Under the pieces are notes generated by a model. The model was not told the origin of the DNA, made no database searches, and saw nothing but the letters and a program-made list of their open reading frames with translations. A program made the translations under genes and the position numbers. Source: a phage. Taken from it: a DNA stretch of 49,223 nucleotides. This document shows, piece after piece, positions 3,043 through 49,105 of the stretch. The stretch is taken from the sequence record NC_103567.1. One strand, written 5' to 3'. Positions within the stretch are counted from its first letter, which is position 1; the number at the start of each line of letters is the position of its first letter.

Positions 3043-3606
3043 ATGTTTACGATCAACTTGTGGGGAAGGGATTATGTTAATCCATATGTTGCGACAAAAC
3101 AGCGTTTCGTTATTTTCGACCTAGACGGCACATTGTCAAATGGTGAGCACCGCTTGCACCTGTTGCCAACTGTTGATTTGCATCTTACTGAAAGCTGGAG
3201 TGAGTTTAATCGCGCCGCAAAGGATGATTCACCATTCAGCAATAACATTTCCGTGTGCAACGCCATGTTTGACGCCGGATACCTGGTTATCATCCTAACA
3301 GGACGTAGTGATGAAGTTGAAGCAGAAACGCGAGCCTGGTTAGCTGAAAACGGCGTTTCTTTCGATTGGCTAATTATGCGCCGCGCGGAGGACAACCGGA
3401 AAGATACAGTAATCAAAGAGGAAGTTTTACGGACTATCGGACTAGATCGCATTGTCGCATGTTGGGATGACTCGCCAAACGTTATTGCACACCTTCGCGG
3501 CCTGGGCTTGACTGTTTACCAGGTAATTGACTACGGCGAGCAGTTACACGATCACTTAAAATCTCACGGCGTGGAGGAATTGAGCGATGACAGCAAAGCT
3601 AATTGA
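3043..3606 (+). CDS. HAD-superfamily phosphatase (nucleotidase or polynucleotide 3-phosphatase-like)
   Basis: N-terminal FVIFDLDGTLS matches HAD motif I (DxDGT); 187 aa. Confidence 0.7.
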   Translation: MFTINLWGRDYVNPYVATKQRFVIFDLDGTLSNGEHRLHLLPTVDLHLTESWSEFNRAAKDDSPFSNNISVCNAMFDAGYLVIILTGRSDEVEAETRAWLAENGVSFDWLIMRRAEDNRKDTVIKEEVLRTIGLDRIVACWDDSPNVIAHLRGLGLTVYQVIDYGEQLHDHLKSHGVEELSDDSKAN

Positions 3607-3775
3607 AGATCGGCATGGTGATAACGTGCTTATTTACATCGAAGGGAAATCGGTGTGGATTGACTGCAAATATGAGGATGACACACATTTGCAGTTTCGC
3701 GGAATTTTTGACAAGAAAGGCGCATTGGAGTTAGCGGAACACATCAAGCGTCTTGCTGAAGAATTACCGGAATAG
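3587..3775 (+). CDS. hypothetical protein
   Basis: 62-aa ORF overlapping the end of the phosphatase gene. Confidence 0.5.
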   Translation: MTAKLIEDRHGDNVLIYIEGKSVWIDCKYEDDTHLQFRGIFDKKGALELAEHIKRLAEELPE

Positions 3776-5981: not shown

Positions 5982-6494
5982 ATGAAAGCTAAAAATGATT
6001 TTTATAACTACCTGACAAAAGGCCGCGACTATACCGTTTTGAATAGCATAGATACTCTTTACCTGGTTGTTGCTGATAATGGCGTTAGAGTTTGGCTTGA
6101 TAAAACTCTTTTCGAAAGCGAGCACCTAAGCAATGCAAAGCGGATCGCAGATGAAGCAAGTGCATTAGCAGAGCGTGAAAGAATTCGCGATATCGTTGCG
6201 GAGCAGGTGAGAAATTCATGTTCGCCTGGTGGCGATATCTTCAAATCAATGCGCGGTGAAATGACTGTTGGAATTCAAGATCGCGTAATTGCAAAATCAG
6301 TTGATTCTGTAATTGAGAATGCGAAATTCAATGCGTTGATTAACTCAGAGCCTAACGAATACGTCAAAGTGTTAGAGCAACTGCGTGAAGTGCTGAGAGT
6401 GCCGGAAGGTGAGAATATAGTGACTCATGCAAAGGTTGTAAGGACGTTGGCTGATGCTTTGCTTGACGTTTACCCAGGAATGAAGTGCAAATAG
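5982..6494 (+). CDS. hypothetical protein
   Basis: 170-aa ORF, AAGGAGAA RBS. Confidence 0.65.
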   Translation: MKAKNDFYNYLTKGRDYTVLNSIDTLYLVVADNGVRVWLDKTLFESEHLSNAKRIADEASALAERERIRDIVAEQVRNSCSPGGDIFKSMRGEMTVGIQDRVIAKSVDSVIENAKFNALINSEPNEYVKVLEQLREVLRVPEGENIVTHAKVVRTLADALLDVYPGMKCK

Positions 6495-6510
6495 CACTTT
6501 TTGTTAAAAC
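6490..6510 (+). promoter_or_regulatory. 21-bp motif, class I
   Basis: AATAGCACTTTTTGTTAAAAC then GAGGGCA...GTCCTC enclosing TGTTAAAGT. Confidence 0.6.
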
Positions 6511-6568
6511 TTCCGCGAGGGCATTTGTTAAAGTGTCCTCATTGAAGCGAAACACGGAGATTTAGAAA

Positions 6569-6772
6569 ATGGCTGTATACACTGGCAAGATGTTTGAAAG
6601 CGAAAACCCGATTTACGGCGGCACTTATGAGCTAATCATTGATGAAGATCGCGTTATCCTGGCTGATGACGACAGCGAGGAATATTATGAAGTAGAGGCC
6701 GACAAATGGGATAACGACGTTATGTTTCTTGTTGATAACAACCGCATCAAGTTTTACGCAGTGGAGGAATAA
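6569..6772 (+). CDS. small strongly acidic protein
   Basis: 67-aa ORF with about 30 percent Asp+Glu (DEDRVILADDDSEEYYEVEADKWDND); ACGGAGA RBS. Confidence 0.6.
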   Translation: MAVYTGKMFESENPIYGGTYELIIDEDRVILADDDSEEYYEVEADKWDNDVMFLVDNNRIKFYAVEE

Positions 6773-6775
6773 CAG

Positions 6776-7027
6776 ATGATCGCAATCAACCTATCAGAAG
6801 AACAAGCGAAATCGTTGCTAAATAGCTTGGGATGGCGTTATGGCTCTGGTGAATATGAGCGATTGGATGTTAAAAGCGATGTTGCAAAAGAGGTTTTCAT
6901 CCAGCTTGAGCAGCAATTAATGCCACGCTCAACAAGTGCGGCAGAGTTAGCAGTGTGGCGGCACGAAAACGGATTGAACGAAATGGATGTTGAAAAGTGG
7001 AAGCGTAAAAACGAGGTGTTAGCATGA
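6776..7027 (+). CDS. hypothetical protein
   Basis: 83-aa ORF tightly packed after previous gene. Confidence 0.55.
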   Translation: MIAINLSEEQAKSLLNSLGWRYGSGEYERLDVKSDVAKEVFIQLEQQLMPRSTSAAELAVWRHENGLNEMDVEKWKRKNEVLA

Positions 7028-7338
7028 TTTACATTCACTCTTACGGAGTTGGCAAGTTTGGCAGCAAGCAGATCAGAAACATTCACGACACGTTAGAAGA
7101 AGCGCAAGCACAGCAACGCGTTTTAGGTGGAGTTGTTCAGGCTTTTGAATCGGTTGAGAATTTAGGCATTAACGAGCAGATAAAGGAAATCGTTGTTGAT
7201 GAAGTAGCATGTATCATTGACGATTTCAGCACGAAAGCGCCAGGTTCGGCGCGTGAGCTTGAGCCAGGTTCTATCGAGTGGGATTTATACAAGGTTGGAG
7301 TGCTAAACCGCCTCCGCGAGCTACTCGCAGAAATTTAA
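7024..7338 (+). CDS. hypothetical acidic protein
   Basis: 104-aa ORF with start overlapping previous stop. Confidence 0.6.
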   Translation: MIYIHSYGVGKFGSKQIRNIHDTLEEAQAQQRVLGGVVQAFESVENLGINEQIKEIVVDEVACIIDDFSTKAPGSARELEPGSIEWDLYKVGVLNRLRELLAEI

Positions 7339-7359
7339 CGAATTTGCATCGATTTTAAT

Positions 7360-7393
7360 CGCCTCCAGACGAATTCTAAGAGGCGAATTTTTT
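7360..7393 (+). terminator. rho-independent terminator
   Basis: CGCCTC...GAGGCG hairpin followed by a T-run. Confidence 0.6.
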
Positions 7394-8275: not shown

Positions 8276-8505
8276 TGCTGATGTTCATTGCTGGTTTTGG
8301 TTTTTGTGCGATTATCTGTTTCTTTCTCTATCTTTGTTTTTCGTGGGGTGTGCAGCGTTGCGTAAAAGACAACGAATTAGTGATCGCCATTTACGAAAAC
8401 AAAGCTGATAAATGGAAGATTACTAAAAACTTTGAAAAGATTGCTGATGAAATTGCATTCCGTCGCAAGTTTGGCAAGCCTGGAAGCATCAAGTATATTG
8501 ATTGA
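8275..8505 (+). CDS. small membrane protein
   Basis: 76-aa ORF with N-terminal hydrophobic helix MLMFIAGFGFCAIICFFLYLCF. Confidence 0.55.
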   Translation: MLMFIAGFGFCAIICFFLYLCFSWGVQRCVKDNELVIAIYENKADKWKITKNFEKIADEIAFRRKFGKPGSIKYID

Positions 8506-8522
8506 TTCAACGAAAAAAAGAC

Positions 8523-8547
8523 AACCCGCCTTGCGCGGGTTTTTTTG
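8523..8547 (+). terminator. rho-independent terminator followed by a TATAAT-containing late-promoter-like sequence
   Basis: CCCGCCTTGCGCGGG hairpin plus T7 run; TATAAT about 20 bp downstream. Confidence 0.65.
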
Positions 8548-8593
8548 TGTCTGCAATTTAGCTATAATCACGCCTCAACAGGAGGATTTTATT

Positions 8594-28977: not shown

Positions 28978-30033
28978 ATGAGCGATTTTAAAGTTTACAC
29001 CTTTGACCAGTTAACCAACGGTGAATATCACGATCCGAAAGGCTGGGCGGCTGAATACGTTAGCGGTTCAAGCCTGGCAGAAATCTTTGCAAGTTGTCCG
29101 GCAGCGTGGAAATACAGACCACGCGAGGAAAGCAAAGCGCTTGTTTTCGGTACGCAGTCACACACAAACTTCCAGAGTAGTGAGCTATTCGCAAAAGAGT
29201 ACCGCAGAGCGCCAGCGCCGGAAGATTATGAAAACCTGATTACGAGCCAGGCAGCATTGGCAGCGAAATTAAAATCTTTTGGCCTGACTGGTACAAGCGG
29301 GAAAACGTATCCAGATCTGATTAAGATGATGGTTGATTGTGGTGAGGATCTAAATGTGCAATGGCTCATTGAAATGATCGCAGAAAGCCAGGCGCGAGCG
29401 GATAACGTTGAATTGGTTCCGGCTAAAGATTACGACGCTTGCGTTACCATGCGCCGCGTACTGGAAAGCATACCTGAACACAACGCTTGCATGAATAGCC
29501 CAACAGCACAACGCGAGCTATCAATTTTCGGAACTATCAAAGGCGTGAAAGTCAAAGTAAGGCTTGACCATGTTGATATTTGCAAAGATGTGCTTGCAAC
29601 GGTGATTTCCGGTTATGATGGTGAAGGTAATCCGGTATATGAAACAACGCGATTTGATGAAGCGATTGTGATCACGGATTATAAAACAACGTCAAGCGCT
29701 AACCCGTCAGAGTTTGCAAGGCTGGCATTCAATCACGGCTACTACTTGAAAATGGCATTGCAACATGACTTATTCAAGAAAGCGTATCCAGAAGAAACGC
29801 GCCCCGTAGTAGTCAGATTGCTGGCGCAGGAAAAGAAAGAGCCTTATTTACCGATTGCATACCGCATGACGGATGAACAATTGAAGATCGGACGACTTCA
29901 ATACATGAGCGTGATAAACCAGTTTGCAGAATGCCAGGTAAATGACGTTTGGCCTTCATACGCAAACGGAGAGCCGGAAATTGACCTTCAAACGCCTGAT
30001 TGGGTTCGTCGTCAATACAAAGGTTTTTTATAA
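28978..30033 (+). CDS. recombination exonuclease (PD-(D/E)xK, RecE/RecB-family-like)
   Basis: 351 aa; RLDHVD ... VITDYKTT fits a D...(D/E)xK nuclease core; GAGAGGA RBS; first gene of the exo-annealase-SSB module. Confidence 0.7.
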   Translation: MSDFKVYTFDQLTNGEYHDPKGWAAEYVSGSSLAEIFASCPAAWKYRPREESKALVFGTQSHTNFQSSELFAKEYRRAPAPEDYENLITSQAALAAKLKSFGLTGTSGKTYPDLIKMMVDCGEDLNVQWLIEMIAESQARADNVELVPAKDYDACVTMRRVLESIPEHNACMNSPTAQRELSIFGTIKGVKVKVRLDHVDICKDVLATVISGYDGEGNPVYETTRFDEAIVITDYKTTSSANPSEFARLAFNHGYYLKMALQHDLFKKAYPEETRPVVVRLLAQEKKEPYLPIAYRMTDEQLKIGRLQYMSVINQFAECQVNDVWPSYANGEPEIDLQTPDWVRRQYKGFL

Positions 30034-30053
30034 ATAGCACTTTTTGCTAAAAC
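30033..30053 (+). promoter_or_regulatory. 21-bp motif, class I
   Basis: AATAGCACTTTTTGCTAAAAC then 8-bp inverted repeat GATGCGTG...CACGCATC enclosing TGGTATACT. Confidence 0.6.
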
Positions 30054-30110: not shown

Positions 30111-30401
30111 ATGGAACAGCAATTCAATGAGCAAGACATTCAAGATGTGCGCGATCACGTAGGCGGATTTGTAAACGCATTAGGAATTATGCAACGCCAG
30201 TTCTTGCGCGTAATTGATCCAAGCGAATCACCGGAAACTCTTGAATATGTTCGCAAGGTTGCATATTCGATTGATAACGTTGTGTTAACGGTTCTTCAAA
30301 TGGAAAATAACGAAGAACACCGCAAGATGATTAATCAGGCAAGTGAAATCATGATCCAGAATTTGATTGATTATCACAACGATAACGAAGAAAAGCATTA
30401 A
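30111..30401 (+). CDS. hypothetical acidic protein
   Basis: ORF track 30063-30401; internal ATG 30111 has GAGAGAGAGG RBS. Confidence 0.55.
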   Translation: MEQQFNEQDIQDVRDHVGGFVNALGIMQRQFLRVIDPSESPETLEYVRKVAYSIDNVVLTVLQMENNEEHRKMINQASEIMIQNLIDYHNDNEEKH

Positions 30402-30447: not shown

Positions 30448-31110
30448 ATGAAATTATCAGATCAAAACGCAAACGTAATTAAGGCATTGTTTGAGGCGCG
30501 TCAGTTATTCACAAAAGTAAAAAAGGATAAGCAAAATACGCACCTTAAAAATAAATATGCAACGCTTGACAGTGTTCTTGATGCAATTATGCCTGGGCTT
30601 ACTGATAAGGGTTTATTCCTGACGCAAGATCAGAAAGTCAGTGAAGATCTTAAATCAATGACTGTATTCACGCGATTCATTCATGTTGAATCAAATGAAT
30701 GGGTTGAATATAGTTTCACGTTGCCAATGCAGAAATTAGATCCACAAGGCGGCGGCTCAACAAACAGCTATGCGAGACGTTATGCTCTTTGCACGGCTCT
30801 TGGCCTGGCAACGGCTGACGATGACGCAAATCTTGCCACCAAAAACGCGCAGGATTGGAAAAAAGATCTTGATGTTTGCGATAACCTTACAGACTTGCAA
30901 GAAACGTTTAAAACGGCTTACAAGCAATCTGACGCGGCTAACAGGAGAATCATTAAAGAGCATTACGACAAGCTAAAAGCAAAAATGGAAATCGGAAAGG
31001 CTCGCGGTTTTAATCCGGCAGCGCCAGCGGCTAATGTTGCGAAGAAGGAAAATGTTGAAAACGAGCCGCAACAGGAAGTAAAATCTCAATCTATCACAGA
31101 CTTTGAATAA
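30448..31110 (+). CDS. erf: Erf-family single-strand annealing protein
   Basis: 220 aa; HLKNKYATLDSVL...KGLFLT and GGSTNSYARRYALCTALGLATADDD resemble conserved Erf segments recalled from P22 Erf. Confidence 0.7.
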   Translation: MKLSDQNANVIKALFEARQLFTKVKKDKQNTHLKNKYATLDSVLDAIMPGLTDKGLFLTQDQKVSEDLKSMTVFTRFIHVESNEWVEYSFTLPMQKLDPQGGGSTNSYARRYALCTALGLATADDDANLATKNAQDWKKDLDVCDNLTDLQETFKTAYKQSDAANRRIIKEHYDKLKAKMEIGKARGFNPAAPAANVAKKENVENEPQQEVKSQSITDFE

Positions 31111-35116: not shown

Positions 35117-35126
35117 GCCGGAATTT

Positions 35127-35735
35127 TTAGCAATCAGTGCTATCGACGGAAATCACAACGCGTTTCTTCTGATTGGCTTCCTTTGCTTTGCGCCGTTCTT
35201 CTTTCGCCTTGTCTCGTTCAGCCTTGCGCCGCGCTTTCTCCTTCTCGCGTTCTTCTGGACTCATAGACCGCAACGGATCGTAAGGACGCACAAATCCTCT
35301 TGCTTCCGCTTCCTCTTTGGTTACAAATCGCATGAGCTTTCTGTTGCTGCAACGATTCTCTAATGGCTTGCCGTTGTTGTCAAAGCGCAAATCTGGACGG
35401 CAATATGAAGCGCGGAAGCCGTTAAAACCTTTGCGGCGGTAATCCTTTTGGATCAGTTCAGCGCCTTTAGCTGAAATCATGCCGCGCTCTTTCCATCCCC
35501 ACACTGTTTTAAGGTTAACGCCAATCTCACGCGCCAACGCAGCACAGCCGCCATAAGCGCTAACCACCTCATCAAGCCTCGCTTTTAATCCTGCCCTTAC
35601 TTCTTCCTTTAGTACCAGATAACCGCTAACAGGTGCGCGGCGCTTCCGGTCTTTACCACGCCTTACGCCGTTGTTACCATTGATTGTGCGTTTGTCGATT
35701 TCGCCCGTTGAGGCCGCAATTTTGATTTCGCTCAT
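35127..35735 (-). CDS. DNA-binding protein with predicted helix-turn-helix and highly basic C-terminal tail
   Basis: 202 aa; GCAALAREIGVNLKTVWGWKERG looks like an HTH; C-terminus KEKARRKAERDKAKEERRKAKEANQKK. Confidence 0.6.
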   Translation of the reverse strand: MSEIKIAASTGEIDKRTINGNNGVRRGKDRKRRAPVSGYLVLKEEVRAGLKARLDEVVSAYGGCAALAREIGVNLKTVWGWKERGMISAKGAELIQKDYRRKGFNGFRASYCRPDLRFDNNGKPLENRCSNRKLMRFVTKEEAEARGFVRPYDPLRSMSPEEREKEKARRKAERDKAKEERRKAKEANQKKRVVISVDSTDC

Positions 35736-42697: not shown

Positions 42698-42718
42698 GTT
42701 TTAACAAAAAGTGCTATT
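42698..42718 (-). promoter_or_regulatory. 21-bp motif, class I (reverse complement)
   Basis: GTTTTAACAAAAAGTGCTATT on the plus strand; an inverted repeat lies downstream in the direction of transcription. Confidence 0.6.
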
Positions 42719-44861: not shown

Positions 44862-44882
44862 CTTTTAGCAATTCGTGCTATT
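44862..44882 (-). promoter_or_regulatory. 21-bp motif, class II (reverse complement)
   Basis: CTTTTAGCAATTCGTGCTATT on the plus strand upstream of the 526-aa gene. Confidence 0.6.
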
Positions 44883-45541: not shown

Positions 45542-45562
45542 GTTTTAACAAAAAGTGCTATT
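45542..45562 (-). promoter_or_regulatory. 21-bp motif, class I (reverse complement)
   Basis: GTTTTAACAAAAAGTGCTATT on the plus strand. Confidence 0.6.
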
Positions 45563-46953: not shown

Positions 46954-46975
46954 GTTTTTAGCAATTCGTGCTGTT
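46954..46975 (-). promoter_or_regulatory. 21-bp motif, class II variant (reverse complement)
   Basis: GTTTTTAGCAATTCGTGCTGTT on the plus strand. Confidence 0.5.
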
Positions 46976-47367: not shown

Positions 47368-47851
47368 GAAAACCCCTGTTTATTTTTTCTCTCTCAATAG
47401 CCATGCTAGCTAATTCAGGAGAATCAAAAAGACCAATATGGATTTCTTTTCCTTCTACTTTTAATCTTGCTCTCCATTTTTTAGCTACGGAATGCCACGA
47501 AACACCGTTAAACCCTGATTTATTTGCTTTGCAATATGATTGATTTTTACCGTTTTCATTTGCACTAACAAGGCGTAGGTTTTCTATCCTGTTATCAATT
47601 CTGTCGTGGTTTATATGATCAATCTGCATTCCTTCTGGAATTTTGCCATTATGCATTTCCCAAACGATTCGATGCGCAAGATAACTTTTATCATTCAATG
47701 TTATCTCTATGTATCCATCATTTCTAATGCTTCCTGCAACTTTTCCAGCCCACTTTTTATTCCATGCAGAATCTCTATATGATCTTATGTTTGTGCGCGG
47801 CTTTCTTATAAGATTACCGCAATCATATATAAAAAAGTCGTGCCAATTCAT
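47339..47851 (-). CDS. HNH homing endonuclease with AP2-like DNA-binding domain
   Basis: 170 aa; YLAHRIVWEMHNG...DHINHDRIDNRIENLRLVSANEN is an HNH motif; C-terminal FNGVSWHSVAKKWRARLKVEGKEIHIGLF looks like an AP2 domain. Confidence 0.75.
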   Translation of the reverse strand: MNWHDFFIYDCGNLIRKPRTNIRSYRDSAWNKKWAGKVAGSIRNDGYIEITLNDKSYLAHRIVWEMHNGKIPEGMQIDHINHDRIDNRIENLRLVSANENGKNQSYCKANKSGFNGVSWHSVAKKWRARLKVEGKEIHIGLFDSPELASMAIEREKINRGFHENHGKKKA

Positions 47852-47905
47852 TTTAAATTCTCCGGTTCGTTTCGATGAATGTATTATGCCAAAACAAACC
47901 GGATC

Positions 47906-47926
47906 GCTTTTAACAAAAAGTGCTAT
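47906..47926 (-). promoter_or_regulatory. 21-bp motif, class I (reverse complement)
   Basis: CTTTTAACAAAAAGTGCTATT on the plus strand upstream of the HNH gene. Confidence 0.6.
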
Positions 47927-48027
47927 TTAATTAAAATACGAATACCTTTTCGCACGCTTTCCGTCGCCTCCGTAATGGTCATTAGCAACAGCAAGAATCC
48001 AAGCGTTAGGAATAAAAAATAGCTCCA

Positions 48028-48222: not shown

Positions 48223-48455
48223 TTCATCACCTCAATTGAATAAATACTTTCAACGCCTGGCGCGTATAACCGCTTTCCATCTTCAGTTATGCAAAGACAA
48301 AGGGCAAGGCCGCGATTGTCTGAAATATGCAAGTCATTTTGTCTATCCATCAAAATTTCATATTCGCGATCTTCATCAAAGCGCCAAACTCTTAACATGC
48401 ACTTTCCAGATGATTTAACTTTTACTTTCTTTCCGATGAAATTTAAACGACTCAT
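48219..48455 (-). CDS. hypothetical protein
   Basis: 78-aa ORF overlapping neighbours in operon-like packing. Confidence 0.5.
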   Translation of the reverse strand: MSRLNFIGKKVKVKSSGKCMLRVWRFDEDREYEILMDRQNDLHISDNRGLALCLCITEDGKRLYAPGVESIYSIEVMK

Positions 48456-48670
48456 TGTGCAGCCTCCACAGTTTCAAATACGGTATTGAATGCCAGAAGT
48501 TTAAATTTCTTGCCTGGCTCAACAACCTGAATATTCCAGGTAATGCCGCCGTGATATGCAACCATATCATCAATATCAACAGTAACCTCAGTACCTTTTT
48601 TGAACAATCCTTTTTCGTGGCTCGCATCGCGTACAGTAACCACAGTTTCGAATTGAGTTTGAATTTCCAT
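48452..48670 (-). CDS. hypothetical protein
   Basis: 72-aa ORF; AGGAG RBS on the minus strand; motif copy upstream. Confidence 0.6.
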   Translation of the reverse strand: MEIQTQFETVVTVRDASHEKGLFKKGTEVTVDIDDMVAYHGGITWNIQVVEPGKKFKLLAFNTVFETVEAAQ

Positions 48671-48724: not shown

Positions 48725-48746
48725 TTTTTTAGCAATTCGTGCTATT
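48725..48746 (-). promoter_or_regulatory. 21-bp motif, class II (reverse complement)
   Basis: TTTTTTAGCAATTCGTGCTATT on the plus strand. Confidence 0.6.
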
Positions 48747-49084: not shown

Positions 49085-49105
49085 GTTTTAACAAAAAGTG
49101 CTATT
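49085..49105 (-). promoter_or_regulatory. 21-bp motif, class I (reverse complement)
   Basis: GTTTTAACAAAAAGTGCTATT on the plus strand; outermost leftward promoter candidate. Confidence 0.6.

Follow-up and report, generated by a model that had tools for sequence, protein, structure and literature searches.

A small acidic, predicted beta-barrel protein and its marbox-like promoter upstream of the small terminase gene in a T1-like phage

Does the short, strongly acidic open reading frame at 6569 to 6772 of phage sequence NC_103567.1 encode an early DNA mimic or anti-restriction factor, as a preliminary description proposed from its composition? The window, by which we mean the whole 49,223-nucleotide stretch that was analysed, has close relatives. 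Over the 1.6 kb around the gene, identity is 99.9% with Escherichia phage vB-Eco-KMB25 and 83-90% with many Tlsvirus phages, and the left 13 kb are collinear with phage TLS (NC_009540), in which the orthologue is gp20. These matches identify the window as the genome of a Tlsvirus (Drexlerviridae, Tempevirinae), one of the T1-like siphophages. The gene stands at the head of a three-gene unit with these features:

6556 to 6559, plus strand: Shine-Dalgarno GGAG, 9 nt before the ATG of the 67-aa coding sequence, read from the sequence.
6569 to 6772, plus strand: coding sequence of the 67-aa acidic protein, a predicted six-stranded beta-barrel (TLS gp20 orthologue, T1 ORF61 family, phrog_6031; from sequence, profiles and model).
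6776 to 7027, plus strand: 83-aa DUF7180 protein, second gene of the unit (Pfam PF23805, E 1.4e-30).
7024 to 7338, plus strand: 104-aa mildly acidic protein of phrog_11192, third gene of the unit (from profile and composition).
7359 to 7386, plus strand: intrinsic terminator, a hairpin with a U-run, at the end of the unit (RNA fold -12.3 kcal/mol, z = -3.45).

The coding sequence runs from an ATG at 6569 to a TAA at 6770-6772, and a single codon (AAA) separates the upstream stop from the ATG. Seven Tlsvirus orthologues give dN/dS values of 0.04-0.14 at dS 0.3-1.3. The small gene that had been called here is thus borne out, and the substitution pattern indicates that it is real, conserved and under purifying selection.

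The phrog_6031 profile matches the protein over its full length (hmmscan E 9e-33, residues 1-67), and TLS gp20 is 95.5% identical to it. No usable match to the protein or to its family profile was found in Pfam, PADLOC or PDB sequence searches. A word-indexed protein search returned eight close clusters, and a second, alignment-based search that took in distant phage homologues returned 48 proteins, all of 46-73 aa and many of them on contigs of ~50 kb. Among 1.84 billion representatives, searched exhaustively with an HMM, the only relatives were seven small clusters and one 35-aa fragment. Three large repeat proteins from that search (P0054, P0056 and P0057) were judged to be compositional matches; P0056 is repetitive, and P0054 and P0057 match the family profile in 10-15 stretches. 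Across these searches, the phrog_6031/TLS gp20 family appears narrow and confined to T1-like phages (Drexlerviridae). Copies of Tlsvirus-type sequence also occur in records labelled with unrelated hosts: OR786094 (Streptococcus phage MBBL140) and about 20 'Campylobacter phage' records carry T1-like or Tlsvirus sequence, including a 95.5%-identical copy of the 67-aa protein. The Streptococcus agalactiae and Campylobacter jejuni labels on these records likely reflect host mislabelling or contamination.

Homologues of 39-48% identity are found in Changchunvirus W011D, in Henuseptimavirus Henu7, AS5 and N5822, and in Klebsiella phage P-K7R. Each is the first gene past an intergenic gap of ~75 bp, ~2 kb upstream of the small terminase gene. 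More distant relatives emerged from structure. When the model described below was compared by Foldseek with predicted viral structures (BFVD), it matched proteins of ISF001 (TM 0.85), IME-JL8 (0.78) and CS01 (0.70), all Drexlerviridae beyond the phrog_6031 family. The ISF001 match, FLXISF001_049, is the counterpart of T1 ORF61 (CPTT1_017) and lies in the same genomic slot. A profile-profile comparison of the TLS gp20 family with the T1 ORF61 family (hhalign 95.6% probability, E 1.1e-8, 65 columns, 25% identity) identifies the 67-aa gene as the Tlsvirus version of phage T1 ORF61. T1 ORF61 (AAP49940.1) and its Tunavirinae kin (ISF001_049, bas13_0077, IME-JL8-37 and bas12_0078) are homologous to the 67-aa protein and share its predicted fold. 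T1 ORF61 also resembles it in slot (first gene past a promoter gap of ~72 bp, upstream of the small terminase gene), in size (69 aa) and in charge, but the sequences of this group have diverged to about 16-25% identity.

The neighbouring genes differ between the two sides of the family. The Tunavirus side lacks a separate 83-aa DUF7180 gene and instead has a 114-aa protein with a DUF7180-like N-terminus. ISF001_048, next to the ISF001 homologue, is similar in its N-terminus to the DUF7180 protein. In Bas11, the neighbour beside the slot is kept (gp81 matches the DUF7180 protein at E 1.9e-30), and the slot itself (47726-47938) holds a different 70-aa acidic protein, gp80, with a net charge of -7, followed by the DUF7180 gene. 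Proteins of the gp80 type are present in 454 phage records and occupy the slot in Bas11, Webervirus and other Drexlerviridae; hhalign detected no similarity between the TLS gp20 family and Bas11 gp80. The slot seems to call for 'a small acidic beta-type protein' rather than for one family.

Acidity is the property that first drew attention to the gene, and it withstands scrutiny. The content of 'about 30 percent' Asp and Glu that had been reported is 28.4% (19 of 67 residues), with five Lys or Arg, a net charge of -14 and a pI of 4.05. Against a background of 13.05% D+E in window ORFs of at least 150 aa, the binomial probability of 19 or more in 67 is 7e-4, beyond chance. The acidic residues are clustered, as was also claimed: DEDRVILADDDSEEYYEVEADKWDND, residues 25-50 of the protein, has 13 D/E in 26. 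The window has 254 stop-to-stop ORFs of 60 codons or more, and among them 6569-6772 alone reaches a D+E content of 25%. The proposed computation of pI and charge likewise makes it the most acidic ORF of the window, ranking first among 145 ATG-initiated ORFs of at least 50 aa. Two other ORFs had been called acidic too, and they are moderately so: the 7024-7338 product has 16.3% D+E, a net charge of -7 and a pI of 4.72, and the 30111-30401 product has 18.8% D+E, a net charge of -10 and a pI of 4.60.

The same character extends through the family. The 46 aligned members have net charges of -7 to -16 and pI values of 4.05-4.57, and T1 ORF61, at 25% identity, equals the 67-aa protein with a net charge of -14 and a pI of 4.05. 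E21, D45 and D48 are invariant in the 46 sequences; E10, E41 and D50 are kept in at least 90% of the alignment (D50 in 98% of the 46), and at positions 26-27 at least 91% have an acidic residue. Some acidic positions of the Tlsvirus protein, such as residues 12 and 43, are basic in other clades. The alignment supports the view that acidity has been kept across about 25-40% sequence identity. A density of negative charge typical of the DNA-mimic class (28% D+E, net -14) is therefore present, and is family-wide.

Structure prediction, also proposed in the preliminary description, gave a confident fold that has no known likeness to a DNA mimic. AlphaFold2, run on the 46-sequence alignment, predicts a six-stranded barrel (pLDDT 89.3, pTM 0.73) with strands at residues 3-11, 19-24, 29-33, 38-44, 51-54 and 61-65 and no helix as long as four residues. 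A Foldseek search of the model against the PDB gave no significant match; 9AXB appeared at TM 0.5 and E 0.45. This entry is Gp54 of Bas11 (PF25180, 'Phage antiviral trigger protein Gp54'), a non-essential 66-aa six-stranded barrel of rare topology, whose function is not known (PMC11578894). Gp54 binds and activates the defence protein CapRelSJ46, even its close homologues fail as triggers, and its authors consider that it may inhibit another defence system (PMC11578894).

Gp54 differs from the 67-aa protein in net charge (-3 versus -14) and is encoded on the other genome arm and the other strand. The 67-aa protein has no PF25180 match at E<=1, and hhalign of the gp20 family against the Gp54 family gives 0.5%. 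The window has its own Gp54 homologue, a 72-aa PF25180 protein encoded at 48452-48670 on the minus strand (hmmsearch E 1.5e-16), directly downstream of the promoter copy at 48726-48746. Because this separate PF25180 gene exists, orthology between the 67-aa protein and Gp54 is ruled out. We read the two as having the same or a very similar fold, as far as the model can be compared with the PDB entry, with homology unproven. The phage thus encodes two small barrels of similar predicted fold, on opposite arms.

The gap upstream of the 67-aa gene contains a conserved promoter element; its parts, and the copies of its box in the window, are as follows:

6491 to 6510, plus strand: 20-bp promoter box ATAGCACTTTTTGTTAAAAC, marbox-like and in forward orientation, one of 17 copies in the window.
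6526 to 6534, plus strand: extended -10 element TGT-TAAAGT, 18 bp downstream of the box and with no -35 hexamer.
6517 to 6540, plus strand: hairpin with outer stem GAGGGCA / TGTCCTC that encloses the -10 element (RNA fold -14.2 kcal/mol, z = -4.25).
1621, 2456, 3971, 5103, 6490, 30033, 35745, 38203 and 39527, plus strand: box copies from a pattern scan of the window, with 6490 being the copy of the 67-aa gene.
35124-35144, 42698-42718, 44862-44882, 45542-45562, 46955-46975, 47907-47927, 48726-48746 and 49085-49105, minus strand: box copies from the same scan.

The 17 copies compare with 0.03 expected, and each points in the same direction as the adjoining genes. The distance from box to -10 element is 18 bp in 15 of the 17 and 17 bp in the other two, and no copy has a -35 hexamer; a scan with the sigma-70 consensus missed the element at 6526-6534 because no -35 is present. 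Compared with the marbox GCAHWWWWTGYYAAA, the core, GCACTTTTTG(T/C)TAAA, is free of mismatches in 11 copies and has one in each of the other six. At 6491-6510 the core GCACTTTTTGTTAAA is a perfect match to the marbox as printed in PMC6900184. Class II promoters of MarA, SoxS and Rob have a forward marbox near -41 that overlaps the -35 position, and no -35 hexamer (PMC6900184, PMC10268841). If transcription starts ~7 nt past the -10 element, the box is centred at about -40.5 to -41, and the promoter of the 67-aa gene has this class II architecture. The box is also found upstream of the same slot in T1, ISF001, Bas11, Henu7, W011D and TLS, and the element has 12 copies in ISF001 and 14 in Bas11 and is present in T1.

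No AraC/MarA-like activator was found among the scanned non-structural ORFs of the phage, in which the only candidates were a YdaS/Cro-like HTH protein and a sub-threshold HTH_23 match. A literature search found no paper linking marboxes with T1-like phages and nothing specific on promoter sequence. The architecture suggests that T1-like phages may use host Rob, MarA or SoxS for transcription of non-structural genes. Alternatively, given the TAGCA-N5-TGCTA palindrome within it, the box could serve as operator for the Cro/YdaS-like regulator that the phage itself encodes (35127-35735, minus strand).

The hairpin around the -10 element is conserved as a structure. Across 14 phages, 94% of cells in the 6517-6540 stem are paired, versus 45-63% for slid controls, and three of the seven pairs have compensatory changes; an Rfam search returned nothing for it. 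In most other promoter copies, too, the -10 element lies within or next to an inverted repeat, whose stem sequence varies between copies. Two copies, at 35144 (minus strand) and 39527 (plus strand), bear T-runs and look like combined terminator-promoter units.

Box copies are absent between 6.5 and 30 kb, the block of terminase, head and tail genes. The promoter type is thus confined to the outside of the head and tail block, and the 67-aa gene is therefore called 'early-type'. The earlier designation as an 'early' protein holds as far as the gene lies in the non-structural region behind a promoter of this class; early timing itself we infer from the class. A literature search found no transcriptome for T1-like phages and nothing specific on the timing of early genes in Drexlerviridae.

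At the other end of the unit, the site homologous to the 7359-7386 hairpin is annotated 'terminator' in phage Stevie. PDB sequence searches with the DUF7180 protein, the 104-aa protein and the 30111-30401 product were uninformative, and the 104-aa protein has no PDB relative. Further downstream, immediately before the small terminase gene, a bidirectional terminator-like hairpin lies at 8523-8541. It is overlapped by an Rfam match to Trp_leader at 8436-8548 that falls below threshold (28 bits, gathering score 41) and probably reflects no more than this terminator.

What might the protein do? It is too small, and too devoid of motifs, to be an enzyme. A confident fold with no catalytic motif, conserved acidity, a non-structural promoter and a nearest structural relative that binds a host protein are best fitted by a protein that binds stoichiometrically to a basic surface, either of a host protein or of a phage protein, a reading that we prefer tentatively rather than regard as probable. 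Host RNA polymerase would transcribe the three genes (barrel, DUF7180 protein and 104-aa protein) from the non-structural, 'early-type' promoter, and the terminator would close the unit. The product of the first gene would be a small, stably folded acidic barrel that binds its target one-to-one, its negative surface filling a positively charged and probably nucleic-acid-binding site. The target would be a host protein, or possibly a phage protein, and the resulting role would be that of a modulator in host takeover or counter-defence; both the binding mode and the kind of target are surmised. PBS2 Ugi, phi29 p56 and T7 gp5.9 are acidic proteins of 50-85 aa that occupy a DNA-binding groove. They are like the 67-aa protein in size and acidity, and they provide the model of how it may work.

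The proposal of the preliminary description was narrower. In its specific form, the protein would be a DNA mimic like T7 Ocr or ArdA and would inhibit restriction-modification of type I, perhaps also of type III, or comparable defences directed at DNA. Ocr (T7 gp0.3) and ArdA are small and made early, and are helical dimers of 116-166 aa in which carboxylates trace bent B-DNA. The 67-aa protein resembles them in small size and in a pI of about 4 (~4 for Ocr and ArdA; 10.1101/2023.04.06.535777), but is a predicted all-beta barrel where they are helical dimers. The charge, -14 in 67 aa at pI 4.05 and conserved, would suit a mimic, as would an early-type promoter before the first gene of a unit. 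Many DNA mimics, moreover, also set off other defences (10.1101/2025.06.06.658234), and Gp54, which comes nearest in fold, has a trigger function. Against these points, searches of Pfam, PADLOC, the PDB and Foldseek PDB found no likeness in sequence or fold to known DNA mimics, including Ocr and ArdA, and two phages that carry family members are restricted. Bas13 LeonhardEuler carries bas13_0077, 96% identical to T1 ORF61, and Bas12 BrunoManser carries bas12_0078, 99% identical to the IME-JL8 protein. In the raw data of the BASEL paper, the EOP of Bas13 is 3e-4 to 3e-3 with EcoPI, 1e-4 to 1.4e-3 with EcoCFT_II and <1e-14 with EcoRV; lacking EcoKI sites, this phage says nothing about type I restriction. 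The EOP of Bas12 in the same data is 0.005-0.02 with EcoKI, with only two sites, and 2e-5 to 7.5e-3 with EcoPI. These values come from phages that bear homologues, and none of the phages plated carries the Tlsvirus-type version of the protein. Such values would not be expected if type I and type III enzymes were blocked in the manner of Ocr, which argues against a role of this kind. Because Bas12 and Bas13 carry family members and yet are subject to type I, II or III systems, Ocr-like anti-restriction is disfavoured, and the claim of an anti-restriction factor finds no support here. The 67-aa protein is probably not a general blocker of restriction-modification like Ocr or ArdA, and we regard the mimic reading as improbable. 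A literature search found nothing specific on anti-defence in Drexlerviridae. A broader version, less doubtful than the Ocr-like one and still decidedly unlikely, is that the T1 ORF61/TLS gp20 family is a new-fold barrel that mimics nucleic acid and would disable some host protein of defence or repair that binds DNA or RNA, other than the classical restriction enzymes, perhaps being itself sensed, as Gp54 is, by an immune protein of the toxin-antitoxin type.

The main rival to binding of a basic surface as set out above, somewhat unlikely in our judgement, is a role internal to the phage: the barrel could be an acidic partner, chaperone or regulator that works with the co-transcribed DUF7180 protein in DNA metabolism or a packaging switch, for instance by covering a basic, DNA-binding protein of the phage until it is required. 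The order of barrel and then DUF7180 in TLS-like phages, W011D and Bas11, with a related N-terminus after the ISF001 homologue, is consistent with such a partnership, and the position of the pair is constant, with nucleotide kinase genes before it and the small terminase gene 1.6-2 kb after it. Strong purifying selection on the gene fits as well, as does the occurrence of the family only in Drexlerviridae, since mobile anti-defence genes often spread to other phages. However, unrelated families such as Bas11 gp80 fill the slot across genera, a turnover typical of accessory genes, and the terminator parts the unit from the genes downstream. Very improbable, finally, is a small metal-binding or metal-buffering module that would take up divalent cations at its conserved D-x-[YW]-D-x-D loop and its acidic turns. 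The invariant residues D45 and D48 and the nearly invariant D50 do fall in one loop, between strands 4 and 5 of the model, but there is no match to metal-binding families, the profile matches to large repeat proteins look compositional, and the spacing is unlike a canonical EF-hand or DxDxDG motif.

As it stands, the 67-aa gene is an uncharacterised but ordinary small accessory gene. If the barrel does prove to be a charge-based inhibitor, it would be a second functionally relevant member of the rare Gp54-type fold, and would open a way to study a slot for which Drexlerviridae use any one of three different small acidic proteins; these phages are widely used in phage therapy and as models (T1, BASEL Bas01-13). 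The promoter may matter more than the protein. If class II marbox promoters drive the non-structural genes of T1-like phages, these phages would rely on Rob, MarA and SoxS, stress regulators of the host, for their early transcription.

The second of the two moderately acidic ORFs, 30111-30401 (plus strand, 96 aa), has its own promoter box at 30033-30053 and sits between the gene for a PDDEXK exonuclease (28978-30033) and that for an ERF recombinase (30448-31110). Its description as early is plausible, given this copy of the promoter and its position in the recombination module. A tail assignment (PHROG 'tail length tape measure protein', tail chaperone) was dropped: because the ORF maps between the exonuclease and ERF genes, it is a gene of the recombination module and not a tail gene. 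By position it would be analogous to lambda gam beside exo and bet, which makes it a candidate RecBCD inhibitor worth testing.

On the left arm, TLS is collinear with the window. Its annotation there includes, at TLS positions 1865-1945 and 3132-3695, an stp-like protein that activates PrrC, the anticodon nuclease of the host, and a polynucleotide kinase. By these annotations, the arm already holds defence-related genes.
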